DNA of 21,737 nt from Promethearchaeia archaeon (GCA_029856045.1 JAHQWG010000041.1:1-21737); one strand, 5' to 3'. Counted from the stretch's first letter, positions 3,302-21,737 are shown. A program made the numbers and translations. The notes: generated by a model not told the origin, from the sequence alone.

Positions 3302-4255
3302 ATGCCTGATGTTAGAATTAAAAGTCCAAATATAGATGATATTTTCAATAAATGGAAACAAAAAGCATATAGACAAAAGAAAAAAGAATTAGAAAAGCAA
3401 TTTGGAACCAAAGGTGCAGTATTTTCACTTGATACTATTTCTGCTGGTGAAACGGTAAAAGAAACCATGAAAGAAGCCTCCGTCTACTTTTTAATCGAAC
3501 AGAAAGAAGAAACATCTAAAGATCAGAAAGAAGAACGTGGGGATATAAAAGAACTAAGCAAAAATACTTTTTATTCATTAAGTGGGGCTAAGATTGAAAA
3601 AAGTAAATGGAAAGGTCCTGATATTGTGCCAATGTATGAAACAATTGAACCAGTGCCCTGCAGTGATTGTAAAGGAAAAGGGTATACCGAGACAAAATGT
3701 AAAGAATGTACCAATGGCACTAAAACAACCGATATGGTGGTATTAACTGGCGCTGAAGCAAAAAAAGAAAAAAAACCGTTCAAGTATAATTGCAATTTTT
3801 GTTATAAAACTGGAGTGATTAGAAACAAATGTAAAACATGTGATGGATACGGAACTACATATAAATGGAAAGAATTACCTGTACCTTTCATATCTAAAAT
3901 GGCTAATGTTCCAAAACTCTATTCAAGTGCTCCAACTAAATACGAAAAACAAATAGGGGAAGAATTAGGAGAATTAATTGAATCTGTTGAAGGAATTAAA
4001 TTTACTAATGTAAAGGATTTATCGGATAAAACTATTGAACCAAACTTGGGTTACTATAATAAAAATATATCAAAAGTAGTCAAAAGAGCTGCAAATGATT
4101 ATCAGAAATTTGAAAAGGACAAAGACTATAAGATTAAAAGTCCAATCCATGTATTTCCGTTGATACAAATATTTTGCGAGAGTAAAAAAGGGAAGAAATT
4201 CGAGATTTATGCAGTAGGAAGCGAGCAAAAATTTATAACTTATAGTAATTTCTAA
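3302..4255 (+). CDS. DnaJ-type zinc-finger (CxxCxGxG repeat) protein without a J-domain; SSUH2-like architecture
   Basis: Four CxxC motifs: CSDCKGKG, CKECTNGT, CNFCYKTG, CKTCDGYG; no HPD motif; C-terminus IHVFPLIQIFC-x-KGKKFEIYAVGSEQKF. Confidence 0.7.
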   Translation: MPDVRIKSPNIDDIFNKWKQKAYRQKKKELEKQFGTKGAVFSLDTISAGETVKETMKEASVYFLIEQKEETSKDQKEERGDIKELSKNTFYSLSGAKIEKSKWKGPDIVPMYETIEPVPCSDCKGKGYTETKCKECTNGTKTTDMVVLTGAEAKKEKKPFKYNCNFCYKTGVIRNKCKTCDGYGTTYKWKELPVPFISKMANVPKLYSSAPTKYEKQIGEELGELIESVEGIKFTNVKDLSDKTIEPNLGYYNKNISKVVKRAANDYQKFEKDKDYKIKSPIHVFPLIQIFCESKKGKKFEIYAVGSEQKFITYSNF

Positions 4256-6504: not shown

Positions 6505-7911
6505 TTAGAATAAGTCAACTAGAGTCTGCATTGCCTTCAAAACTTTTTTTCCTTTTACAGTGATTTTATAATATATTCTCTTTTCTTGTTTTTTATCTCT
6601 AGCAATAAGATCTCTTATTTCAAGTTCAGATAGATGCTGATAAACTGCAGGAAGTGAGATATCTCCTAAATTTTTTTGTATTTGAGTTCCATACATTGAT
6701 TCAAGTTCAATTAATTGTAAAATTTTAAGTTTTGTACTTAGAAGAGCACCAATACCTACAGTTTTTGATTTATGAGTCAATGCTTGCAATACATATGGAG
6801 CCTTCAAACCACTTCCAGTGATAAGACAACAAATTTTCTCATTTTTATCTATTATATTTTGGTCATTTAATTGTTTAACGGAGGCAACAGTCAAAGCAGA
6901 AGATGGCTCAGCAAATATTCCTTCAGAACTTGCTAACTTTCTTTCTGTAGGTAAAATTAAATTCTCATTTATTGCAATCGCTTTTCCATTTGATTCTTTT
7001 ATTATTTTTACTGCTAAATCTTTATATATGGGATTTTTTACTAAAATACCTAGAGTATGTGTAACTTTAAGACTTGATTTAACTTGTTTCTTCAAATTAT
7101 ATTTATCAACTATTGGTGACCATCCTTCAACTTGAGCGCCAACCATTTTAGGTAATTCATTGATTACTCCTAATTCTTTTAATTCATTCAATCCTTTCCA
7201 AATACTTATCAAACATCCTCCGCTTCCCATAGGGACAATTAACCAATCAGGAACACCAATTTCCCCTACAATTTCATACCCAATAGTTTTTTGAGCTTCA
7301 ATTGTTAAAGGATTAAGTTCGGCTGTAGCTTGATAAAAATCTTCTTCATTAGCTCTTTTTTCAGCATGAATTAATGATTCATCAACTGTATCTCCCTTTA
7401 TTTCAACAACTGAATCATATGCATACATTTGAGCTCTCTTTCCTTCATCTATTCTTTTAGGGATGATATTTAAACACTTTATTCCTGCATATGAGGAATA
7501 AGCTGCTATGGATGCACCTTGATTTCCCGCAGATGCACATATTATTTTTTTATAATTTTGACTGTTCGCGTGAGAAACTAAAAGTGCCCCTACTCTATCC
7601 TTAAAAGAATTTGTTGGATTTTGAGTTTCATCTTTAAAAAATAAATTACTTAATCCTAAAGATTTTCCAAGATTTTTGGATTTAATGCAATTTGTTCCTC
7701 CCTCACTTAGAGAGATTTGGAATTTCTTTTCAATTGCTGGAAAGAACTTATGATATTTCCAAAAATCTCCTTTTCCAATTCTTAATTCGTCTATATTTAT
7801 TGCATCTATTATTTGAGGCTTAAGAAGTAATAAATCTCCACATTTGGAACATTTATGCTTAATTTTTTCTGATTTTATTTGTTCATTACAATTTGTGCAT
7901 TTATATTCCAT
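6505..7911 (-). CDS. thrC: Threonine synthase family PLP enzyme with an N-terminal Zn ribbon and a fused C-terminal winged-helix (ArsR/PadR-like) domain
   Basis: CTNC..CSKC; EGGT; NPTNSFKDR (PLP Lys); ASAGN; VPMGSGG; AEPSSA; LITGSGLK; then TKLKILQLI...ISLPAVYQHLSELE...RIYYKITVKGK. Confidence 0.85.
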   Translation of the reverse strand: MEYKCTNCNEQIKSEKIKHKCSKCGDLLLLKPQIIDAINIDELRIGKGDFWKYHKFFPAIEKKFQISLSEGGTNCIKSKNLGKSLGLSNLFFKDETQNPTNSFKDRVGALLVSHANSQNYKKIICASAGNQGASIAAYSSYAGIKCLNIIPKRIDEGKRAQMYAYDSVVEIKGDTVDESLIHAEKRANEEDFYQATAELNPLTIEAQKTIGYEIVGEIGVPDWLIVPMGSGGCLISIWKGLNELKELGVINELPKMVGAQVEGWSPIVDKYNLKKQVKSSLKVTHTLGILVKNPIYKDLAVKIIKESNGKAIAINENLILPTERKLASSEGIFAEPSSALTVASVKQLNDQNIIDKNEKICCLITGSGLKAPYVLQALTHKSKTVGIGALLSTKLKILQLIELESMYGTQIQKNLGDISLPAVYQHLSELEIRDLIARDKKQEKRIYYKITVKGKKVLKAMQTLVDLF

Positions 7912-8063: not shown

Positions 8064-8600
8064 TTAAATTAAACCAACATTCCTCATAATTAAATGAGCT
8101 ATAAAAGTGAATATGTTTTCTACCATTTCACCTGTTTTAGAAGAACATTCAATTGGTCCATATAATTTACGAGAAATTGATACCTTTCTTGCTTTTTCTA
8201 AGTAGACTACTCGTTTTTTCTCAAGATCTAACTTTCCTCCAATCAAAAGTATAGGCGGTTTTTTTACATTATCAATAGAGCCTTGGTAAAATACATCTAA
8301 CCATTCATCTATATTATTTATACTATTCATTTTTGTAATATCATACATAAATATACCAGCAGAAGCCCCTGCTGCATAACCAGGCAACATAAATCTGAAT
8401 CGTTCCTCGCCAGCGAAGTCCCATATCTGAAGTAAAATTTTCTTACCTTCTATAATTAGACTTTTTAAAGCAATATCAAGTCCTATAGTCATTTTAGTAT
8501 CTACTTCAAACATACCAGTAAGGTATTTTCGGATTAAAGTAGTTTTCCCAACTCCACCATTTCCAAATATACATAATTTGTATGTTGCGTCTCTGCTTAT
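8064..8600 (-). CDS. Rab/Ras-like small GTPase; probable ATA start at 8600 (the ORF-track start at 8513 omits the P-loop)
   Basis: In-frame upstream extension ISRDATYKLCIFGNGGVGKTTLIRKYLTG contains G1; G2 TIG; G3 WDFAGE followed by ERFRFM; G4 GGKLD; G5 SSK. In-frame stop at 8619-8621; no ATG/GTG/TTG before the P-loop. Confidence 0.88.
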   Translation of the reverse strand: MSRDATYKLCIFGNGGVGKTTLIRKYLTGMFEVDTKMTIGLDIALKSLIIEGKKILLQIWDFAGEERFRFMLPGYAAGASAGIFMYDITKMNSINNIDEWLDVFYQGSIDNVKKPPILLIGGKLDLEKKRVVYLEKARKVSISRKLYGPIECSSKTGEMVENIFTFIAHLIMRNVGLI

Positions 8601-11613: not shown

Positions 11614-12243
11614 ATGGGAGGAAATAATAGTAGCAGAGTTGAATATTTAATAGAAGGGTTATGGATTCTAGAAAATCTATCTGGAATATGTCTTTTTGAA
11701 GAAATTTATAGTGATTTTACTAAGGAAGGAATCTCAACCGATTTGATTACAAGTTTTTTATCGGCATTATTAAGTTTTGCAAACGAAGCTTTCACAGATG
11801 CAATACAACATATTCAATTATCAAGCCGTAAAATTTTGTTTGAATTAACTAAAAATGTATTATTTGTTGCAGCTATAAACGCAAAAGCACCTGCTGCTGA
11901 TGCTGAAATTAAATACGCAATTCGAAAAATTGCTAAAGTATTTAATAAAAAATTTAAATCTTCTTTTAAAGATGGGAGTTGTGGTGGGAAAGTTAGTGTT
12001 TTTAATTCATTCTCAGATGATTTAAGAAAAATCGTGAAAAAGGAGCCTTTAACACTAAAATTTTTAACTGTCGAGCAAGCTATAAATAAATATCAAAAAC
12101 AAATGTTAAAAACAACTCAAGGGTATTCTAAAAAAATACAAGATTTTCAAAAAACACAAACGAATATGACAAAAGATTATATGAAGGAAGCGCGAGAACA
12201 TATGCTTTTGAGAAAAAAAGAGAAAAGAAAAAAGAAACTTTAA
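11614..12243 (+). CDS. Longin-like domain protein with a basic coiled-coil C-terminal tail
   Basis: IEGLWIL..SGICLF...DLITSFLSALLSFANE...IQHIQL..RKILF...LFV...IRKIAKVFNKKF...FNSFSDDLRKIV matches the Asgard longin-like pattern; tail ends RKKEKRKKKL. Confidence 0.72.
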   Translation: MGGNNSSRVEYLIEGLWILENLSGICLFEEIYSDFTKEGISTDLITSFLSALLSFANEAFTDAIQHIQLSSRKILFELTKNVLFVAAINAKAPAADAEIKYAIRKIAKVFNKKFKSSFKDGSCGGKVSVFNSFSDDLRKIVKKEPLTLKFLTVEQAINKYQKQMLKTTQGYSKKIQDFQKTQTNMTKDYMKEAREHMLLRKKEKRKKKL

Positions 12244-12680
12244 ACTAAATTATCAATGAATTTTATTTTAACAACGGATGATAACTCATCTAATACTTGA
12301 CCGATTTCTTCTTCTTTTTTCATATAAACTGGTATGATACGTATTTTTCCAATTGCCAGAGAATAACAATCGGCAATAGAAATTGGAAATTTGCACTTCA
12401 AATGAAATGCCTCATCTCTCAATTCGCTTTCGGAATAAATTATAAAATCTTTTAAGAATTCTGATACAAATTCTTTTGCATTCTGATACCCACTTTTACG
12501 GCAAAAAATATATTTCAGTTCCATATCAACTAGAGGACTTATATAAAATGTCTTAAATTGAGGGTTTTCTAGAATTTCGTGAAAAAATGCTTTACCTAAT
12601 GTTGAATCCTCAAGAACTTCAATTAAAACTCCAGTATCAACTGCGATTGAAGTGATTTGTGAGTCTTTTTTCTCGTTCAT
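12240..12680 (-). CDS. vapC: PIN-domain ribonuclease toxin (VapC family)
   Basis: VDTGVLIE, ELKY and ISIADCYSLA acidic PIN residues; overlaps the upstream antitoxin by 44 nt. Confidence 0.85.
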   Translation of the reverse strand: MNEKKDSQITSIAVDTGVLIEVLEDSTLGKAFFHEILENPQFKTFYISPLVDMELKYIFCRKSGYQNAKEFVSEFLKDFIIYSESELRDEAFHLKCKFPISIADCYSLAIGKIRIIPVYMKKEEEIGQVLDELSSVVKIKFIDNLV

Positions 12681-12918
12681 TATCTTCTTTCCTCAATTCT
12701 TTAAGCAATACTTTACCTTCGCCAGGCTTAAGTATACCTTGATATTTTTTAATATTTTTAAGAAAATCCACTTTATTTACTTCAGTTTTTCGTTCTTCTA
12801 ACAAATAATTAATAATCTCATCGTATGTAACCCTCCGCCCCCACATCTTTTCGAGTTGATTCATAACGATAAATAATTTTTTCTTAGTTTCTTCAGAAAT
12901 TTGAATTGTAGTTGCCAT
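12637..12918 (-). CDS. Antitoxin, archaeal VapB-like ribbon-helix-helix protein
   Basis: MATTIQISEETKKKL...VTYDEIINYLL RHH-like N-terminus, directly upstream of and overlapping the PIN gene. Confidence 0.78.
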   Translation of the reverse strand: MATTIQISEETKKKLFIVMNQLEKMWGRRVTYDEIINYLLEERKTEVNKVDFLKNIKKYQGILKPGEGKVLLKELRKEDNEREKRLTNHFNRS

Positions 12919-13025: not shown

Positions 13026-13928
13026 TTAAAAAAAATATGTAAAAAATATTGAATAAAGGGAAGGAAATTGAATAAATGGGATAAAATGAATGAGACTTAA
13101 TAAATAATACATAAAAAGTGCCCCAATTGTGAGAATAAAAATAATATCCTTCTTTTTAAAAGGAATTTCTATTAGATTTGTTCGAGTTTTGTATAAACCA
13201 AAACATCTATTTTCCATTGATATGGATGTGATATCTCCTTTTCTTAATATTGAGACCAGAATTGTGATGAGCCTTTCTTTTATAAAATTATAAGCTTTTT
13301 TAACTGTATTAGCCTTTTCCCTCCCAAATCCTCTAGCTCTTTGAGCAAGTCCAATTGTTCTTGCTTCTTGTTGGATTAGGGGGATATATTTAAGTCCAAC
13401 CATAAAAGCAAAACTATATTTATAGGAGACCCCGGTTTTCATCAATGCATAGACAAAATCCTTCATGGAAGTTGTATGGGTAAAAATTATTGCAGATAAG
13501 AATAAGATAAGGATCCATAATGCGTTTCTTAATGCATAGTAAACGGCCAATCTTCTAATCGGTAAAAAAGTAAGATTAAATAAATAGAATAAGATTTGAG
13601 ATTCTTCATTGGGGATTGCGTTAAAGAAGATATTTAAGATTATAGAAAAGAGACTTAATATTAGAATCCATTTAAATTTATAAAAAAGAGATTTAATTGA
13701 CATTTTGCTTGACAGCGCTAAAAAAAAGGTTAATAAAAAAACGATTGAAAGAAAAGTCAGACTCTCGATTGAGAATACAAAAATCGTAAATAATATCAAG
13801 AAAAACAATTTGCTTATGGGATTTAATTTATGCAAGAAAGAATTATTTGGAACATAGGAAAAGAAATCCCTTGTCTTATCTAAATTGAATTGTTTCCTTT
13901 TAATTTTTTGTTTTTTGTATTTAGTCAT
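13026..13928 (-). CDS. ecfT: ECF transporter transmembrane T component
   Basis: SFLHKLNPISKL, TT..DFVYAL, KYIPLIQQEARTIGLAQRARG and SMENRCF (the two ARG-like coupling motifs). Confidence 0.92.
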   Translation of the reverse strand: MTKYKKQKIKRKQFNLDKTRDFFSYVPNNSFLHKLNPISKLFFLILFTIFVFSIESLTFLSIVFLLTFFLALSSKMSIKSLFYKFKWILILSLFSIILNIFFNAIPNEESQILFYLFNLTFLPIRRLAVYYALRNALWILILFLSAIIFTHTTSMKDFVYALMKTGVSYKYSFAFMVGLKYIPLIQQEARTIGLAQRARGFGREKANTVKKAYNFIKERLITILVSILRKGDITSISMENRCFGLYKTRTNLIEIPFKKKDIIFILTIGALFMYYLLSLIHFIPFIQFPSLYSIFFTYFF

Positions 13929-13934
13929 ATCTTT

Positions 13935-15626
13935 TTAGATTTTACCTAACTTTTTATTTATAATATTTAATAAAGAAATTGGCCCTAAACTTTGGTATTT
14001 TTGGAAGTATGAATAATTTTCTTCATATTCTATTAAATTACCGTTATCTAACTCAATTATTTTATCCACATGATTTAGAAGTAAATGATAATCATGTGAA
14101 GATATAATAATTGTTTTGCCTTTTTGCTGCTCCTGATAAAGTATATTAATTAATTCATCTATTGTTTTTTGATCTTGACCTATGAATGGCTCATCTAATA
14201 AAATAATTTCAGGATCATAAATAAAAATTGAAGATAAGTTTAACCTTCTTTTCTGACCCCAACTAAGGTTAAATGGATTTCGATCATATTCAACATTTCC
14301 AACCATTCTCATTAATTGATTTAAATTCTCTTCATCAAATTGATTTAGGAGATTAAAATTTTTTGGGGCATATAGAATTTCATCTCTTATTGTATTTTTA
14401 AATAGCATATTTTCGGGATTTTGAAATATGAATCCTATCTTTTCAGCATATTCATAAAAATCAATTTCCAAAAGATTTCTTCCTTTATAATATACTTTCC
14501 CCTTAGATGGATTATATAATCCAGCTAATAGGTAAAGTAATGTTGTCTTCCCGCAACCATTATGACCAACTAATCCAATAAAATCTCCTTTATAGATTTT
14601 TAATGAAATATTGTTTAAAGCCATTCTATTAAGTTTAGGGTATTTAAATGAGGCATTCTTAAGTTCTAAAAGAATCTCACCTTCCATTCCGTCAGAATAT
14701 TCTTTATGGTTCATAAAATTTTCATAGAGTCTATTTTTCAATAATTCCAGATTCCTATTCGTTTCTTTATTAATTATTTCAATAGCAGTATCAAAAAACA
14801 ACGGAATTTCACGTTTTGGTGTTTCCAAGGCAGAAATAAAAAGATCTGGAATCCAAGGGATTCTTAGATTACAAGATTTTAAATCATTGAAGTGGTTTCG
14901 AAATAGATTATTAATTGAACCTTTAAGTGCAATTTCTCCATTATGATTTAATACTAACAAATAATCAGCAATATCTAATACCTTAGATAATCTATGCTCA
15001 ACAATTATTATAGATAAATCCAATTCTTTATCTTGATAGAGCTTTTTTAATCGATTCAATAATAAAGTGGAAGATTTTTGGTCCAAAAAGGCAAATGGTT
15101 CATCTAAAATTAAAATTTTAGGTTTCATTACCAAGTAGGAACAGATTACAACGATTTGCTTCTCTCCTCCACTTAAATCATCAATATCTCGATCAATTAA
15201 ATGCTCAATATTCATAAACTCTACTATATCATCTACTCTTTCGATTATTTCCTCCTTCGGAAGATTTAAATTCTCTAATCCAAATGAGATTTCATCTCTT
15301 ACAGTAAATGTCACTAATTGTTCATCTGGGTTTTGTTTAACTAATCCCACTTTTTTTGATAATTCAGCTAAACTTTGATCCCAAACACTTAAACCGAAAA
15401 CTTTTACATCTCCCTTCATATATCCAATTTGTCTAAAAGGAATAATTCCATTTAGAGCATTGCATATCGTGGATTTTCCACTTCCACTACTCCCCGCAAG
15501 AATTAGAGTTTTTCCTTTTTCTAGTTTAAAAGAAATATTTTTTACTGCAGGTCTAACATGATTATCATTTCCATATATAAACGTAAATCCATCAAATTCC
15601 AAGGCAAAATTGTTTTGTTTGTACAT
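13935..15626 (-). CDS. ecfA: ECF transporter fused double ATPase (A-A')
   Basis: GSSGSGKST / QNPDEQ / LSGGEKQ / LDEP / EH and GHNGCGKTT / FQNPE / LSWGQKRR / LDEP / SH. Confidence 0.93.
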   Translation of the reverse strand: MYKQNNFALEFDGFTFIYGNDNHVRPAVKNISFKLEKGKTLILAGSSGSGKSTICNALNGIIPFRQIGYMKGDVKVFGLSVWDQSLAELSKKVGLVKQNPDEQLVTFTVRDEISFGLENLNLPKEEIIERVDDIVEFMNIEHLIDRDIDDLSGGEKQIVVICSYLVMKPKILILDEPFAFLDQKSSTLLLNRLKKLYQDKELDLSIIIVEHRLSKVLDIADYLLVLNHNGEIALKGSINNLFRNHFNDLKSCNLRIPWIPDLFISALETPKREIPLFFDTAIEIINKETNRNLELLKNRLYENFMNHKEYSDGMEGEILLELKNASFKYPKLNRMALNNISLKIYKGDFIGLVGHNGCGKTTLLYLLAGLYNPSKGKVYYKGRNLLEIDFYEYAEKIGFIFQNPENMLFKNTIRDEILYAPKNFNLLNQFDEENLNQLMRMVGNVEYDRNPFNLSWGQKRRLNLSSIFIYDPEIILLDEPFIGQDQKTIDELINILYQEQQKGKTIIISSHDYHLLLNHVDKIIELDNGNLIEYEENYSYFQKYQSLGPISLLNIINKKLGKI

Positions 15627-15642
15627 ATCTCTTTCAAAATTG

Positions 15643-16320
15643 TTAACTTTTATCTAAATTTGTAATCTCATTTGTTTTTACAGTAAAAATGGCTTGAGCT
15701 GCAATAGGTACACCTGCTTTTATTAAGTAGTTTTTAATAACTTTCCCTAATAAACCAGCTATAAACACACCTGATAAAAATGCAAAAATCATTGCTAATA
15801 TGAATAAAGATATATGAAGAGTAAATAATTTTCCCGAAATATACCAAAAAACGGGAACTTGAGTTATATTTCCAATTCCACCTGCAATCCCCCAACCTAA
15901 TTTTGAATCTCCTTCATTAAGGTGTTCCATAATAAAGAAACCTACAAGTAATGAAGCACCTTCTAATAAATTTATTCCTATAATAATAATTCCATAAGAA
16001 CCAGTTATGAGAAATTCGAGTATTCCTTTTGTAAACATAGAGATAAGAATCCCAGGTTTATTTCTTGTTAAACCATAAAAAATCGCAACCCAAATAATAT
16101 GATGTGCAGATGCTAATTGTGTTCCGCCCGTAAGAGGGTACCACACTTTTATTAATAAATCAAAGGGTATAACACTTGAAATGATTCCTCCAAGAGTCCC
16201 AAAAATTGTTGCATAAAGTAAAGTTCTAATTGAAATTCCAAATCTGCTTTTTTCAATTTCTAAATTTTCTACTCCAGTCCTTTTAAATTCTTCTTTTGTG
16301 TCTTCAAGATTTTTTTCCAT
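15643..16320 (-). CDS. ECF transporter S component (dedicated, group I; YkoE-like fold)
   Basis: About 6 TM helices with the pattern HHIIW..., KPG..., KGILE..., G...LLEG; adjacent to ecfA and ecfT. Confidence 0.75.
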   Translation of the reverse strand: MEKNLEDTKEEFKRTGVENLEIEKSRFGISIRTLLYATIFGTLGGIISSVIPFDLLIKVWYPLTGGTQLASAHHIIWVAIFYGLTRNKPGILISMFTKGILEFLITGSYGIIIIGINLLEGASLLVGFFIMEHLNEGDSKLGWGIAGGIGNITQVPVFWYISGKLFTLHISLFILAMIFAFLSGVFIAGLLGKVIKNYLIKAGVPIAAQAIFTVKTNEITNLDKS

Positions 16321-16341
16321 AGAGCAAAATCACCATTAATT

Positions 16342-16914
16342 TTAATATACCCTAATTGCAACTGTATGTTTTGCAGTATATATGGTATTCCAATCTGGAA
16401 ATAAACTTCTATTCACTATTCCTTCTATCGGACCTCTATCCGGTTCCCCTCCCATGGGCATCCCGTTCCTCTCATAAGCTAGCAAAACCAATTCAGGATT
16501 TTGTTCAACTACCGAAAAGAGGATATTTCTACTAACATATAAATCGCTCGCTTCAAATCGAAATCTTGTGGAATTGGGATTTAAGCAATTTTCTTTATTA
16601 AAAATGTCCCATATAACCGCCCCAGAATAATTATCAACCCAAGTATTCCCAAAATCATTAATAAAATAAAATCTATGATTTATTACTTGTTGATAATTGG
16701 ATTTTAACTGAGTTAATGTGATATTGACTTCTCGTTTTACATTTCCGTATATTTTAATTGAAATTTCAGTATTACCATTTATTTGTTGTTCTATAAATTG
16801 CAAATTATAGATTGTTAGTCCAATTGATGCACTTATAACTATTCCAAATAATATAAAAATAGAAAGATTCCTTTTTGATAAAAAGTCTCTAATTTTATGT
16901 TTTGAATTATTCAT
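16342..16914 (-). CDS. Membrane-anchored molybdopterin-oxidoreductase (sulfite oxidase/MsrP-like) fold protein
   Basis: N-terminal TM; IKIYGNV..ITLTQL; YSGAVIWDIF; RFEASDLY; LLAYERNG; RGPIEGIV; AKHTVAIRV. Confidence 0.7.
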   Translation of the reverse strand: MNNSKHKIRDFLSKRNLSIFILFGIVISASIGLTIYNLQFIEQQINGNTEISIKIYGNVKREVNITLTQLKSNYQQVINHRFYFINDFGNTWVDNYSGAVIWDIFNKENCLNPNSTRFRFEASDLYVSRNILFSVVEQNPELVLLAYERNGMPMGGEPDRGPIEGIVNRSLFPDWNTIYTAKHTVAIRVY

Positions 16915-16925
16915 TTTGTAAATAA

Positions 16926-17840
16926 TTATCTATTATTCTTTATTGCAATAAATTTCCTTTTCCAAATTATAATTAATCCAGTTAAAAAAATCATAATAAA
17001 TAAAGTGAAACCTAATTGATAACCTGAAATAATAAGAGCTGGAAATTCAGAAAAATGTAAAGCATAAATCCACGATATTGCGTGATCTTCACCTTCTCCT
17101 GTACCATATTCATTATCCAATATAGCGATTGTAAATTCATATATCGTCTTTTCTTCGAATTGAACATCATATTGCTCACCGGTTGTTAAAGGTCGAGAAA
17201 TTTCTATTTGATAACGATTTGTATCATTAAACCAGGTTCCATAAATCATACCTGTCTCTATTTGGCTAATTTCAGAATTGTGAGGATACCAACCATCATC
17301 TCCAAAACATGTATCATAACCGTTGTATGAAGAACCATTTTCTTTTCCTATCCGATATCCCCATTGCCAAGTATCCACATCTCCTCCACCATACGGACCT
17401 GTCTTCATACCTTGGTAAAATGCCGCAGTATAATTTGACATATTTATGTTCCAACACATTGAAAATTGATCCCAATTGCTCAGTGGAGTTGAATCCTCCC
17501 AACTAGCCAAAATAAATAAGTGGGTATCACTATGAGCGAAAGATATATTAACGTATCTAATAAAAAAATTAGGAGAATAAAAATCAGCGGCAACGGGTAT
17601 CAATATAGAATTATTTTTTCCAGAAACATGCCAAAAATCTTCATTATCCTGACCATCAAGAGTAATAACCGCATTTGGGTCATAATATATATCCACATGA
17701 GTAGTATGATGATAATATTGGCAATCTCCTTTACCAGGCCACGAAGACCCTATAATTATAGGAGCAGATATAGCTTGAATTATGAGAAATATTAAGAAGA
17801 AAAAAAAAAATGGAATTAAAGTTTTTTTATGGAGCGCCAT
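16926..17840 (-). CDS. Secreted DOMON / ethylbenzene dehydrogenase gamma-like putative heme-binding protein with a Loki-CTERM-like anchor
   Basis: Signal peptide; ITLDG...EDFW; HLFILASWEDST; DQFSMCW; GM; DTWQW; EISRPLTTG..DVQF; FTIAILD; H; C-terminal ISGY + TM + KRK. Confidence 0.7.
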   Translation of the reverse strand: MALHKKTLIPFFFFFLIFLIIQAISAPIIIGSSWPGKGDCQYYHHTTHVDIYYDPNAVITLDGQDNEDFWHVSGKNNSILIPVAADFYSPNFFIRYVNISFAHSDTHLFILASWEDSTPLSNWDQFSMCWNINMSNYTAAFYQGMKTGPYGGGDVDTWQWGYRIGKENGSSYNGYDTCFGDDGWYPHNSEISQIETGMIYGTWFNDTNRYQIEISRPLTTGEQYDVQFEEKTIYEFTIAILDNEYGTGEGEDHAISWIYALHFSEFPALIISGYQLGFTLFIMIFLTGLIIIWKRKFIAIKNNR

Positions 17841-17871
17841 TACTTTATCACAATTATTTTTTATTTATTTT

Positions 17872-18978
17872 CTATATTTCAATATATATACTAGTTAACC
17901 ATTTGTTATATCCCTTCTTTAATTGCCCTGGAACTATTAACTTATAAGGACCACCATCAACGAGCTTTAAAGATGTAGGATTTCCAGAGCCCACTTTTTG
18001 ATGCTGAATCTCTGCATTCACAATCCACATTAGATTACCCTCTGGGGCATGAATTGAATCCATTGGCATCGGAAATCCAGTGCCAGGAATACAATCTCCA
18101 GTTGTTGCATTCAAAGTACAATTAACAATAGATGGTTCCACCAATCCTGATTCAATGTCTGTATTATTGTATCCTGAGCTTGGCCAAGAAAATCCGTCTA
18201 CACAATCCCATGTAATGTTATAATTTTCCAAAATATTCGCTTCTTTTGTGAAATTTTTTAAGGTCCTTCCTTTTATTGTACAATTCCAGTCAAAATATTC
18301 CGTTCCATTATCATCATACCACCAATGATATGTATTGTAATCTCCGATTCCTTCCATCATTTTATTTGTATCTATTGTGTAATTCAGAATTCCATTCACA
18401 TAAACCGGAATTACCCACTCAGATATAATCTCTATGCTTGTTACATTCATAATCGCCGTGGAGGCATTAAGATCTCCACCAAATAATGAAAAATTTCCAT
18501 AAGCAGCACCTAGCGGAGAATTTTTTAACCAATTATCATTAGCCATTATTCCAATAATTAGAGGGTTTGTTGTTTGAGGATTTTTTACCATATTTCCATC
18601 AGAATTAATCATAAACCCAACATCTGTATCCAGATTATCGGAAAAATTATGAACCTTTACACCCCAAGGAGCATGAAACCCAAAATAATTAAATAATTCT
18701 ACGACATTTACACCAGTTATATTATATCCTTGTCCAGTTGTTTCAGTATCCTCAAATTTTATTTGAGTTAAATCTCCAGATTCAATTAAATCTATTATAG
18801 TTGAAGCATTTATTGACTTCTCAGTTCCATCCCAATATTTTATTTTGAGATCTTGTAGAGGAGGGGAAGTATCAGATGTTGTCCCAATTTGCGTAATAAG
18901 CCATATTCCACCACTGACTCCAGCAATAATCACAGCAACTACTATTATACTTGTTATAATTAGATTTCTTTTCTCCAA
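17872..18978 (-). CDS. Membrane-anchored extracellular glycoprotein, probably two degenerate molybdopterin-oxidoreductase-like domains
   Basis: TTG start; N-terminal TM; ITGVNVVELF and IKGRTLKNF; DCVDGFS; GGPYKLIVPG...KWLTSIYI at the C-terminus; 14 N-x-S/T sequons counted. Confidence 0.55.
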   Translation of the reverse strand: MEKRNLIITSIIVVAVIIAGVSGGIWLITQIGTTSDTSPPLQDLKIKYWDGTEKSINASTIIDLIESGDLTQIKFEDTETTGQGYNITGVNVVELFNYFGFHAPWGVKVHNFSDNLDTDVGFMINSDGNMVKNPQTTNPLIIGIMANDNWLKNSPLGAAYGNFSLFGGDLNASTAIMNVTSIEIISEWVIPVYVNGILNYTIDTNKMMEGIGDYNTYHWWYDDNGTEYFDWNCTIKGRTLKNFTKEANILENYNITWDCVDGFSWPSSGYNNTDIESGLVEPSIVNCTLNATTGDCIPGTGFPMPMDSIHAPEGNLMWIVNAEIQHQKVGSGNPTSLKLVDGGPYKLIVPGQLKKGYNKWLTSIYIEI

Positions 18979-19050: not shown

Positions 19051-19776
19051 TTATTTTTTTAAAATATAGCTAAAGATGGGAATAAAAAGAAAATATTTGT
19101 TATTCTCTATAGCTACATTCATTTTTTTATTTTTAAAATTATGATTAGTTAAAATTTTTTTAAAAAATTTTAGTTCTTTTAATAAATTATCTTTATTCTT
19201 ACTCGAAGTCCAAGGAACACTTATACAATATCGCTCAACTATCTCGAATTTTTGAGAAAAATATTGATTCATTTTTCTCCCCACTTCAGGATCGGCTCCA
19301 TTATCTTTCAAATTTGAGATTAATGCATCTTTTAAACCTGTTTCTGGAGATTCAATAACCCCTCCATAATCGGGCTCTGCAAGTATTAATAGAATACCTT
19401 CTTTTTTTAAAATTCTATGAATTTCATTGAAACATTTTTCAAGATCCTTAATCCATAAAAATAAATAATGTGTAATAATCACTTCAAATTTCTCATCTTC
19501 GAAGTCATTATTTAAAATATCCATATATTGAAGATTTGCCTTGATGTTCTCTTGATTTAAATTGTCTTTGGCAATTTTTAAACGATGTTCATCAATATCA
19601 ATTCCATATAAATTTAGATTAAATTCTTTCCCAATTTCTTTTAGAAGTGCTCCAGTGCCACACCCAATTTCCAAAAGATTTTTCTTGGTCTCCAGATTTA
19701 TTATCTTATAAATATGACTCCTGAATTCATAAGTCCACTTTAATTGTTCGCTGAATCTTATATTCCAATCAATCAT
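19051..19776 (-). CDS. Class I SAM-dependent methyltransferase
   Basis: LLEIGCGTG, GIDID, HRILKKEG, AEPDY, GADPEVGR. Confidence 0.9.
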   Translation of the reverse strand: MIDWNIRFSEQLKWTYEFRSHIYKIINLETKKNLLEIGCGTGALLKEIGKEFNLNLYGIDIDEHRLKIAKDNLNQENIKANLQYMDILNNDFEDEKFEVIITHYLFLWIKDLEKCFNEIHRILKKEGILLILAEPDYGGVIESPETGLKDALISNLKDNGADPEVGRKMNQYFSQKFEIVERYCISVPWTSSKNKDNLLKELKFFKKILTNHNFKNKKMNVAIENNKYFLFIPIFSYILKK

Positions 19777-19820
19777 AAAATAAGTGTTTAGTTATTGATA
19801 AAAAAAAATAAATTAAAAAA

Positions 19821-21212
19821 TTAAAAATTTGGAATATTACAAATTAATTTCTTTTGATCGATGTACAATGGGCATCCTCCGCCACAAATTCGTAATAATT
19901 CGCATTTTTTACATTTAGGCTCAATATATTCATGGTTTCTTATACTTTTAAACAGTTTTGAATTCCAAATAGTGTCCCAGTCATCTTTTAATATATTCCC
20001 AACAGGTTCATAGTAAGATTGGCAAGGTAAAACATCTCCATTTGGTTCAATTGCAATGCTTGTATTTGCTGCAGAGCATCTTTTTGGTCCCAAACCAATT
20101 TCTACTGGATTAATAGAACAATATTGAGTTGGAGTATACCAGATAAATCGCATGTCCAATTTTCGAGCTCGATTATTTATCTTGTTTAGTATTGGCTCTA
20201 ACTCTTCTTCAGCAATGCCGTGCTCAAACTCCTTTCCCTTACCAGAATAAATTAATCCATTACAAGCAAAAGTTTTTACGTTTAATTCATGAAGGAAATT
20301 TATTGTATCTTTAATTCCCTCGACGTTATGCTTGCATAATGTAGTATTAGTCATAAAGAAAATATCTTCTTCTTCAAAATTTTTGATTGCTTGAACGGTT
20401 TCATCAAACCCATCTACACCAACCATTTTATTATGGATTTCTTTATCATGAGATTCCAAAGTTATCTGAGCATAATCTAAACCTTTTTGTATTGCTTGTT
20501 TTACTAAGTTTTTATCAGCAAATTTCCTTCCATTAGTTATAATCCCCATTACAAAACCTTTTTCTTGACCATATGCGATCAAATCCAGAAAATCATCTCT
20601 CATTGTTGGTTCTCCTCCCGTTAAGGCTATATGCGGGACTCCAACATCCCATAATGCATCCATTATTCTTTTCATAGACTCTGTATCAAGTACTGGAAAA
20701 TCTCGTTCTCTTGCAACGTAACAATGTCCACAATTATTGTTACAGTCGTAAGTAATTGCTAAATCAATTCTTAAAGGAAATTCTGAAACTTTAAATGGCT
20801 TTTTTGCGTCTATTCCAATTTGGGAAAAGGGATCAACATCTTCCTCTGATAGTAAAAATTCTACTTTATCTAAAAGAGTATTATAATCTTCTTCTACTTC
20901 TTCGGCTGTTGTCCGAAAATATTTTATGAAAAATTCTTGAATTTCGGTTAAAGATTTTCCTTCAATAAACTCCTTGAAATACATCATAGCAAATTGATTT
21001 AAATAAAGTACATATTTTGCATCAATTATTAGGATTCCTTTACTATTTTTCAATATTCTTAAGTGAAATTTATGAGATCCAGTTTTTCTAAATTCAATTA
21101 TATTTGAATATACTCTAGGAATAGAATCATCAAAAACGAATTTTGGTAATATCTTCTTTTTTAATTTCTTGAAGAATTTTTTTGTTTTTCCTTTGGGTTT
21201 TACTATACTCAT
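19821..21212 (-). CDS. Radical SAM/SPASM-domain enzyme with an N-terminal PqqD-like RiPP recognition element
   Basis: CNNNCGHC; TGGEP; ITNG; SPASM CSAANTSIAIEPNGDVLPC...CKKCELLRICGGGCP; N-terminal LYLNQFA...EGKSLTEI...AEEVEEDYNTLLDKV three-helix RRE pattern. Confidence 0.92.
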   Translation of the reverse strand: MSIVKPKGKTKKFFKKLKKKILPKFVFDDSIPRVYSNIIEFRKTGSHKFHLRILKNSKGILIIDAKYVLYLNQFAMMYFKEFIEGKSLTEIQEFFIKYFRTTAEEVEEDYNTLLDKVEFLLSEEDVDPFSQIGIDAKKPFKVSEFPLRIDLAITYDCNNNCGHCYVARERDFPVLDTESMKRIMDALWDVGVPHIALTGGEPTMRDDFLDLIAYGQEKGFVMGIITNGRKFADKNLVKQAIQKGLDYAQITLESHDKEIHNKMVGVDGFDETVQAIKNFEEEDIFFMTNTTLCKHNVEGIKDTINFLHELNVKTFACNGLIYSGKGKEFEHGIAEEELEPILNKINNRARKLDMRFIWYTPTQYCSINPVEIGLGPKRCSAANTSIAIEPNGDVLPCQSYYEPVGNILKDDWDTIWNSKLFKSIRNHEYIEPKCKKCELLRICGGGCPLYIDQKKLICNIPNF

Positions 21213-21215
21213 CTT

Positions 21216-21737
21216 TTATCTACCTCCTCCAGCACACGCACATGCACACCCTGCACAAGCACAAGCACAAGCGCAACCTCCAGCTCCACCACGACCTCCA
21301 CCACGACCACCAGTACTTCTTGGTCGAGGAGGGGCAACTGTATTAACTATACTCTCAGCGAAATTGGTGAAATTCTTAACTATTGTATTGCTAACATTTT
21401 CCATACCCCGGACAATCGAATCTGAAAATGTATGGATATTAATATGCTGTTTAGGAAGTATATTCGCACTTATAGATCTTCCGGGATGATATGTATAGTA
21501 ATGATGCCGAGGCCAATAATAATGATACCAATAATAACGCGGATACCAATATGGATAATGAACATAATAACGGTGACTTAGATATCGTTCTGAACGTTTT
21601 TCAAATAGGTCATCTAAAACTATCCAGTCATATTCATCTTCAATATCTTCAAATTCTATTTCATTTGGCATCTTTTTAATTGTTTCCCATGCTTGATTAA
21701 TCATGTTATCATAGTAATAAGTTGTAGCGTCCAATTC
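21216..21737 (-). CDS. C-terminal part of a protein ending in a Gly-rich linker and the Cys-rich tail GGCACACACAGCACACAGGGR (putative radical SAM substrate; 5' end outside the window)
   Basis: The frame stays open past the TTG at 21734 to the edge (GAA at 21737-21735). Tail has 7 Cys; stop lies 3 nt before the rSAM ATG. Confidence 0.85.
   Translation of the reverse strand, partial: ELDATTYYYDNMINQAWETIKKMPNEIEFEDIEDEYDWIVLDDLFEKRSERYLSHRYYVHYPYWYPRYYWYHYYWPRHHYYTYHPGRSISANILPKQHINIHTFSDSIVRGMENVSNTIVKNFTNFAESIVNTVAPPRPRSTGGRGGGRGGAGGCACACACAGCACACAGGGR

Follow-up and report, generated by a model that had tools for sequence, protein, structure and literature searches.

Can the substrate of a peptide-modifying radical S-adenosylmethionine (SAM) enzyme be the tail of a large membrane protein? 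This question is raised by the 21,737-nucleotide stretch of DNA analysed here (the window), which is the complete contig C40 of a 3.3-Mb metagenome-assembled genome (MAG) of Promethearchaeota (Loki). Three open reading frames (ORFs) lie in the same orientation on its minus strand, with intergenic gaps of 3 nt and 44 nt, just where the initial annotation had placed them. They are the 3' part of a gene whose product ends in a tail of alternating Cys and Ala, an enzyme with a recognition element (RRE) for peptides that are made by the ribosome and modified after translation (RiPPs) joined to radical SAM and SPASM domains, and a methyltransferase; related loci add a zinc-ribbon gene. We infer that this four-gene cassette is a protein-modification system. 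Its gene content, linkage, and conservation are established by sequence, and the system is real and not previously described in the literature or in curated families. A literature search on the motif, on radical SAM RiPPs in Asgard archaea and Anaerolineae, and on DUF2207 returned no description of it, most subscription papers lying outside the coverage of that search.

The Cys-Ala tail and its linkage to the enzyme

The tail, (CA)4-G-(CA)3-GGGR, has 19 residues, seven of which are Cys. The seven Cys after a Pro/Gly/Arg linker that the initial annotation had described are present, with the strict alternation interrupted once by Gly. No other ORF of at least 150 aa in the genome has CxCxC within its final 30 residues (1/2606), and the chance expectation for the fixed seven-Cys pattern is 4e-8. 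The tail columns are 87 to 100% conserved in 47 proteins that share about 30% identity overall. Since every synonymous codon is used in the tail, it is conserved as protein and not as DNA, and an origin as a DNA microsatellite was excluded. It ends 134 of the best 150 matches to the whole-protein profile, the other 16 ending early or out of frame. In the usual form, it is composed of C, A, G, and R only; the last block and GGGR are nearly fixed, the upstream blocks number from none to several, and the position of the spacer moves.

Linkage between tail and enzyme had been set beforehand as the test of the proposal. We collected 68 genome loci; one of the six seeds was the tail itself, so that tail presence in this set is biased, while the neighbours are unbiased, and counts of loci and of Asgard genomes are descriptive because kin are not independent. 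The loci are mostly from Anaerolineae, with others from Heimdall- and Promethearchaeota, Thermoplasmatota, Cloacimonadota, Zixibacteria, and further groups. An Asgard-specific system was thus rejected, and the Asgard setting that the initial annotation had put forward is incidental, as most loci are Chloroflexota. The clade enzyme was present in 54 of the 60 loci having at least 1.5 kb downstream, immediately downstream in 52 of them, and all five unlinked genomes tested carried it elsewhere (E<=4e-178), three beside the methyltransferase. The 251 Asgard genomes comprised 83 with both tail protein and enzyme, 3 with the tail protein only, 14 with the enzyme only, and 151 with neither, so that 83 of the 86 tail-bearing genomes have the enzyme; one of the 14 enzyme-only genomes holds a divergent tail gene adjoining the enzyme. 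The zinc-ribbon gene was found in 55 of the 61 judgeable loci and the methyltransferase in 34 of 44.

A short leader-core precursor peptide was absent among the clustered ORFs of at least 40 aa, and no other conserved small ORF of that size occurred near the cassette except that of the zinc-ribbon membrane protein, ORFs below 40 aa being outside the clustering. The Cys core sits on a protein of 520 to 770 aa. The proposal that the substrate is the tail of a larger protein has held up to this extent: linkage, joint presence and absence, and the way in which tail type follows enzyme clade make the tail the most likely partner of the enzyme.

The enzyme, the scaffold, and a sister system

The window enzyme passes the Pfam cut-offs for both Radical_SAM and SPASM, the latter (PF13186) being matched by 36 of 36 family members. 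Its N-terminal domain, described in the initial annotation as PqqD-like, is by profile and model an RRE: 30 of the 36 members match PqqD at E<=0.01 (best 4.8e-9; the window enzyme itself gives no match), the family profile matches the TfuB1 RRE (6JX3) at E 1e-4, and the structure model has the three-strand, three-helix RRE layout at residues 46 to 122. All of the 25 best-scoring NCBIfam families stay below their cut-offs. The best scores are those of heme-pathway families, all far under cut-off, and a role in heme or PQQ biosynthesis was rejected on these scores; the StsB family scores 103 bits (cut-off 625), and TIGR04463 is not among the 25 best listed, so it lies below about 65 bits. Among solved structures, the sactisynthase SkfB is the best match by sequence, and SuiB, SkfB, and CteB are the best matches by fold. 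The six positions near the catalytic site, assigned here by motif and not by the scoring of PMC10288494, are Y/T/I/T/Q/S, as against Y/T/F/S/Q/L in SkfB (from alignment), F/F/T/S/H/Q in CteB, and Y/T/I/S/K/L in StsB, which cross-links a CxCxC core to Gly (PMC10288494). Agreement is three of six identical plus one conservative with StsB and likewise with SkfB. C365 is an extra invariant Cys between barrel and SPASM; the distal C459 is not conserved, a distal Cys being present in 14 of 36 members. A selenocysteine form, flagged by a TGA in genome G033, was rejected: the ORF of 448 aa ends after the SPASM motif, with no selenocysteine tail seen, and the tail gene of that genome is a fragment only.

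The tailed protein begins with a signal peptide and a beta-sandwich ectodomain of about 200 aa. After a transmembrane (TM) segment come a domain folded in the cytoplasm, an amphipathic helix, and then a Gly/Ser/Arg linker that bears the tail; TM helices number usually one and, in the Loki form, three. The net charge, -0.5 ahead of the first TM and +2.9 behind the last, places the tail inside, and from the sequence the ectodomain is predicted to be outside and the tail in the cytoplasm. Similar tails on membrane proteins of Chloroflexi, which the initial annotation mentioned, were indeed found. Fold comparison matched the ectodomain to Ost1/ribophorin I (Z 16, root mean square deviation 2.9, 181 residues) and to N-domains of M1 aminopeptidases, and, more weakly, the cytoplasmic domain to GOLPH3/Vps74 (Z 7.7 and 6.4). 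A eukaryote-signature system was rejected, since the Ost1/ribophorin-I and GOLPH3 matches are shared folds at 8 to 11% identity. The scaffold of about 550 aa is conserved in fold, its profile matching 505 clusters (50% identity) at E<=1e-30. None of the 47 Cys-Ala members was matched by Pfam, including PF09972/PF20990. The Atlas places the scaffold near DUF2207, a family of similar architecture defined by those two entries (16% of one cluster at score 0.98; TM-score 0.52 over 411 residues); the typical DUF2207 protein has a Gly-rich C-terminal tail that lacks Cys. TIGR04222 matched the scaffold below threshold (17.7 to 33.7 bits, cut-off 43 bits), in 7 of the 47 Cys-Ala members (best E 7.8e-5) and in one member of the sister form described below (2.7e-8). 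Tandem paralogues of the tailed protein occur at L066:4535-8504 and L108:3282-5536, and some members of about 770 aa (P0001-P0003, P0007) match over a further stretch, which is probably a second copy of the ectodomain.

A sister system, overlooked by the initial annotation, came to light in one Asgard family, probably Thorarchaeota, in which a (CHSA)n tail on the same scaffold (hhalign 99.8%) goes with a divergent enzyme. When metagenomes were scanned for the CHSA repeat by motif only, most matches proved to be C-terminal tails of this scaffold, so that this form is widespread. The enzyme was present in 44 of the 47 judgeable CHSA loci; of the 27 long loci, none had the methyltransferase or the zinc-ribbon gene. 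One branch of the enzyme tree (SH-aLRT 100) sets the enzymes of Cys-Ala tails apart from those of (CHSA)n tails, each side including archaea, and two substrate-facing active-site positions differ between them (T251/Q398 in Cys-Ala enzymes, S/S in CHSA enzymes). As judged from these sequences, the split of the enzymes follows tail type and not host. Longer tails with seven-residue CxCxCxx blocks that include Val, Ser, or His, and with altered ends, were seen in P0127, P0131, P0135, P0138, P0147, P0149, and P0150; they are possibly a third subtype.

The methyltransferase clade was present in 45 of 47 Cys-Ala genomes and in none of 39 CHSA genomes. Its best solved match is LahSB (PDB 6UAK; 4e-24), a RiPP methyltransferase that acts on the C-terminal carboxylates of precursors, with ends in Met, Ile, or Val and not Arg (PMC11285071). 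Thirteen Loki genomes that have neither tail gene nor enzyme still carry the methyltransferase intact (L236-L240). In five such Loki cases, its flanking gene is the ACT-like one that adjoins the complete cassette in genome G011, as though the three remaining genes had been lost. The link behind the tailoring role given to it by the initial annotation is weaker than proposed: it accompanies the Cys-Ala form, but it is dispensable in the sister system and stands alone in 14 genomes. Because of this distribution, it is an accessory or has a second substrate.

Two further components had escaped the initial annotation, the zinc-ribbon gene and the dead paralogues of the enzyme. The zinc-ribbon gene lies upstream of the tail gene, and its product has two TM segments; an Atlas search with it gave only scores below 0.9. 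Chloroflexota loci often hold a paralogue of the enzyme that has lost all cluster Cys and kept the RRE and several barrel residues. Such copies had a second origin in G143, with a further one in G037 outside the tree, and they are nearly always accompanied by an active enzyme. A half-dead paralogue that has lost the SAM-cluster motif and kept the C-terminal SPASM Cys was seen at L075:5258-6584 and L077:509-1816.

What may be done to the tail

That the tail is modified covalently in place, by whatever chemistry, we consider probable. We lean, with somewhat less assurance, towards the fuller reading of a cross-domain membrane-protein family of anaerobes whose cytoplasmic RiPP-like core would be made poly-thioether or poly-thiooxazole in place, with two tail codes served by their own enzyme clades and with dead "reader" paralogues that evolved repeatedly in the Cys-Ala form. 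The tailed protein would be exported so that the ectodomain is outside and the tail in the cytoplasm; the RRE would grip the C-terminal region, and the flexible tail would thread into the barrel, where its Cys would be altered one after another by radical chemistry, the tail staying on the protein. The part of the dead paralogues would be to bind this tail and do no chemistry on it. Once finished, the tail might, at a guess, be a metal- or redox-responsive cytoplasmic element in a membrane complex with the zinc-ribbon protein. As for the product, we put forward tentatively, as the likeliest, sulfur-to-alpha-carbon thioethers to nearby Ala or Gly, with oxidation at Cys C-beta next in rank. The methyltransferase, where used, might cap the carboxylate of the C-terminal Arg, which by analogy would be compatible with the invariance of that residue and which we hold to be a somewhat doubtful possibility, though the likeliest for this enzyme; S-methylation is distinctly less likely.

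Known systems offer partial parallels. One is CrpC/CrpA of Methanococcus voltae (TIGR04463; PMC13692751, 2026), in which an archaeal RRE-radical SAM-SPASM enzyme stands next to a large protein, Cys-rich in its C-terminal region, and thioethers on a protein have been demonstrated. CrpA starts with a leader at its N terminus, and its ten repeats of 17 residues hold CxxQ/D acceptors, no membrane protein being mentioned (PMC13692751), whereas the Cys-Ala tail has 19 residues, lacks these repeats and any acidic or Gln acceptor, and is borne by a membrane protein; the enzymes differ as well in the arrangement of SPASM Cys. According to PMC13692751, the RRE-containing QhpD installs several thioethers within a protein subunit, QhpC, the links being Cys-Asp/Glu and the subunit small, with an N-terminal leader and no membrane scaffold. 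QhpD and CrpC are precedents on whole proteins. StsB/StsA and SkfB (PMC10288494; PDB 6EFN) share similar catalytic-site residues, and the CxCxC donor block of StsA is linked to Gly alpha carbons, but these enzymes act on short free precursors with a fixed hairpin, unlike the variable register of the Cys-Ala system, which has no small precursor of at least 40 aa. The nearest architectural parallel, by analogy, is the pairing of TIGR04222 proteins with MNIO (DUF692) enzymes, itself only proposed: a membrane protein with a low-complexity Gly/Ser-Cys C terminus stands beside a Cys-modifying RiPP enzyme, with the differences that the enzyme class is another, the linkage is loose, the tails are predicted to be periplasmic, and most cases are from Actinomycetota (PMC12452194). 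No MNIO gene was among the conserved neighbours of the cassette, no genome-wide DUF692 search having been made. The Cys-Ala system would work like CrpC/CrpA, QhpD/QhpC, and StsB/StsA but fails the features that define their substrates.

Several findings weigh against the reading we favour. The number of Cys per tail varies from 2 to 12, and because of this and of the moving spacer, a fixed hairpin fits poorly. Nine of the 14 enzyme-only Asgard genomes are one family in which no tail gene was found; they are incomplete MAGs, and the tail gene often lies at contig ends. The division of the enzyme tree by tail type is a single event and not repeated co-evolution. The methyltransferase clade also occurs in 14 genomes without the enzyme, and the lead of LahSB over generic methyltransferases (2e-22) is narrow. 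Both C365 and the absence of a distal Cys from many members suggest that auxiliary cluster I (AuxI) is filled, and the SPASM Cys layout is the opposite of that of CrpC, which has three AuxI and four AuxII ligands and whose open AuxI is thought to bind substrate Cys (PMC13692751). The thioether cross-linking proposed in the initial annotation is not established: the active-site residues fit hairpin sactisynthases, but the layout of auxiliary Cys is unlike that of CteB and CrpC, and the repeat number and register of the tail vary.

A further adverse point concerns the tail gene of this assembly. The contig end cuts it, and its 5' piece, the upstream sequence that the initial annotation had wanted retrieved, is the end of contig C14 (784-1), with 593 nt unassembled between the two pieces; the same end of C14 carries a 128-aa gene overlapping the tail-gene start. 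Codon 233, on C14, is an in-frame TAG where relatives have GAT (Asp). It lies 86 nt from the contig end and arises from a local three-base change (L091:1-120); four sequencing runs of one study on a related strain (about 94% alike), and so not this strain's own reads, have GAT. Compared with its orthologue in G001, the window piece shows 13 differences in its first 400 nt, every one of them at a third codon position. Three genomes of the same genus have the complete gene (631-634 aa) in the intact order zinc-ribbon gene, tail gene, radical SAM enzyme, methyltransferase. Either the assembly is in error at this copy or the gene broke recently, and the family-level argument is independent of its state.

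Modification in place could also take another form, in which the enzyme abstracts hydrogen at Cys C-beta and makes thiooxazole- or thioamide-type metal ligands, the cassette then being the equivalent, in anaerobes, of the MNIO enzymes on TIGR04222 membrane proteins. The enzymes anSME and SbtM abstract hydrogen from Cys C-beta. SbtM turns Cys into thiooxazole (PMC11002830). Chemistry at each Cys would tolerate the variable repeat number and a spacing of two or four, the sister tail adds His ligands, a possibly filled AuxI is compatible, and the scaffold weakly matches TIGR04222, whose Gly/Ser-Cys tails are proposed MNIO substrates (PMC12452194). However, the SbtM family (TIGR04082) has a score of only 78 bits where its cut-off is 350, many other families scoring higher, the active-site residues resemble those of sactisynthases, and TIGR04222 tails are predicted periplasmic, whereas the Cys-Ala tail is predicted cytoplasmic; we regard this form as rather unlikely. 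We give about as little credence to an unmodified tail that binds metal or Fe-S or donates sulfur, the enzyme binding it, loading it, or using it as a cluster ligand and having another substrate. Even unmodified, CxC and Cys/His arrays are classic sites for metals, which also counts against the favoured reading. A zinc-ribbon protein is the partner, AuxII lacks a fourth protein Cys in most members, the best family scores are the sub-threshold ones of heme-pathway enzymes, and cluster-free paralogues with RRE and barrel arose more than once, so that binding alone is selectable. Metal-binding tails, however, rarely require invariant Ala and an invariant terminal GGGR, the active enzyme is nearly always retained beside dead copies, and no other conserved substrate gene of at least 40 aa was found.

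The flexible Gly/Arg linker between invariant core and folded part, together with an RRE-fused enzyme and a LahSB-like methyltransferase, typical RiPP parts, would suit a membrane protein that serves as carrier or leader for a tail cut off as a free RiPP. We consider this improbable. A released peptide, one of the outcomes named in the initial annotation, is unlikely because no protease or exporter is conserved in the 68 loci; moreover, the linker has no conserved cleavage site, and the scaffold is itself conserved in fold. Hardly credible is an epimerase producing alternating D and L residues with C365 as hydrogen-atom donor. Radical SAM epimerases use such an extra Cys as hydrogen donor, one is invariant here between barrel and SPASM, and the tail sequence alternates, but no epimerase family is among the 25 best NCBIfam matches, and the invariant Cys and the sister tail with its spacing of four would be left unexplained.

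Radical SAM thioether chemistry on large proteins has few experimental examples (QhpD, CrpC). If the favoured reading is true, this would be the first thioether- or oxazole-type modification by a radical SAM enzyme on the tail of an integral membrane protein among those found. An experimental result would provide a branch of DUF2207/TIGR04222-like membrane proteins with its first function. A near-invariant 19-residue candidate substrate and cultured carriers, among them Ornatilinea apprima and Bellilinea caldifistulae, make the system directly testable, and two tail codes with matched enzymes are a basis for comparing specificity. Mining tools keyed to short precursors or to high overall Cys content overlook such tailed proteins.

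Features and other genes of the window

Table 1. Coordinates of the cassette features, counted from the first letter of the window
Feature	Coordinates	Strand	Remarks
Tailed-protein gene, 3' part (last 173 codons of a protein of ~631 aa)	21216..21737	-	Open at window end
Pro/Gly/Arg/Ser-rich flexible linker	21276..21332	-	Sequence and length variable; pLDDT (predicted local distance difference test) <50
Cys-Ala tail (CA)4-G-(CA)3-GGGR with free C-terminal Arg, putative substrate	21219..21275	-	
GGAGGAGGT, three Gly codons, Shine-Dalgarno-like site for the radical SAM gene	21222..21230	-	Read in sequence
RRE-radical SAM-SPASM enzyme (463 aa) of an unnamed clade specific to Cys-Ala tails	19821..21212	-	
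RRE (PqqD-like) domain, ~residues 34-122	20847..21113	-	
CxxxCxxC motif (C157, C161, C164), then invariant Y165	20721..20744	-	57/57 active members
SPASM region, invariant C365, C379, C397, C434, C437, C443, C447	19836..20120	-	
Class I SAM-dependent methyltransferase, 241 aa, distinct clade, accessory to the Cys-Ala form	19051..19776	-	

The Shine-Dalgarno-like reading of the last codons of the tail gene stands, GGAGGAGGT lying 9 nt ahead of the ATG of the radical SAM gene, while the translational coupling drawn from it is inferred only, because the Gly codons differ in other genomes. A promoter and terminator scan gave no signal above chance level.

Neither the ECF transporter nor the other genes found further downstream in the window count among the conserved neighbours of the cassette. 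The transporter belongs to a co-oriented run (13026-18978, minus strand) that begins 72 nt downstream of the methyltransferase with three predicted membrane-anchored or secreted proteins, which give weak molybdopterin-oxidoreductase and EB_dh matches, and ends in the ECF-type genes (S-like, double ATPase, CbiQ). At 12240-12918 (minus strand), a PIN-domain gene overlaps a small upstream gene and resembles a VapBC-type toxin-antitoxin pair. A Ras-family small GTPase (8064-8513, minus strand) has its P-loop in frame upstream of the first ATG; there is no standard start after the previous stop, and an ATG in another frame lies just upstream, so that an ATA start, a frameshift, or an assembly error is possible. 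The gene at 6505-7911 (minus strand) encodes a threonine-synthase-like pyridoxal phosphate enzyme fused to a C-terminal PadR-like helix-turn-helix, and that at 3302-4255 (plus strand) a protein of 317 aa with no Pfam match and with repeated CxxCxGxG motifs like those of the DnaJ zinc finger.

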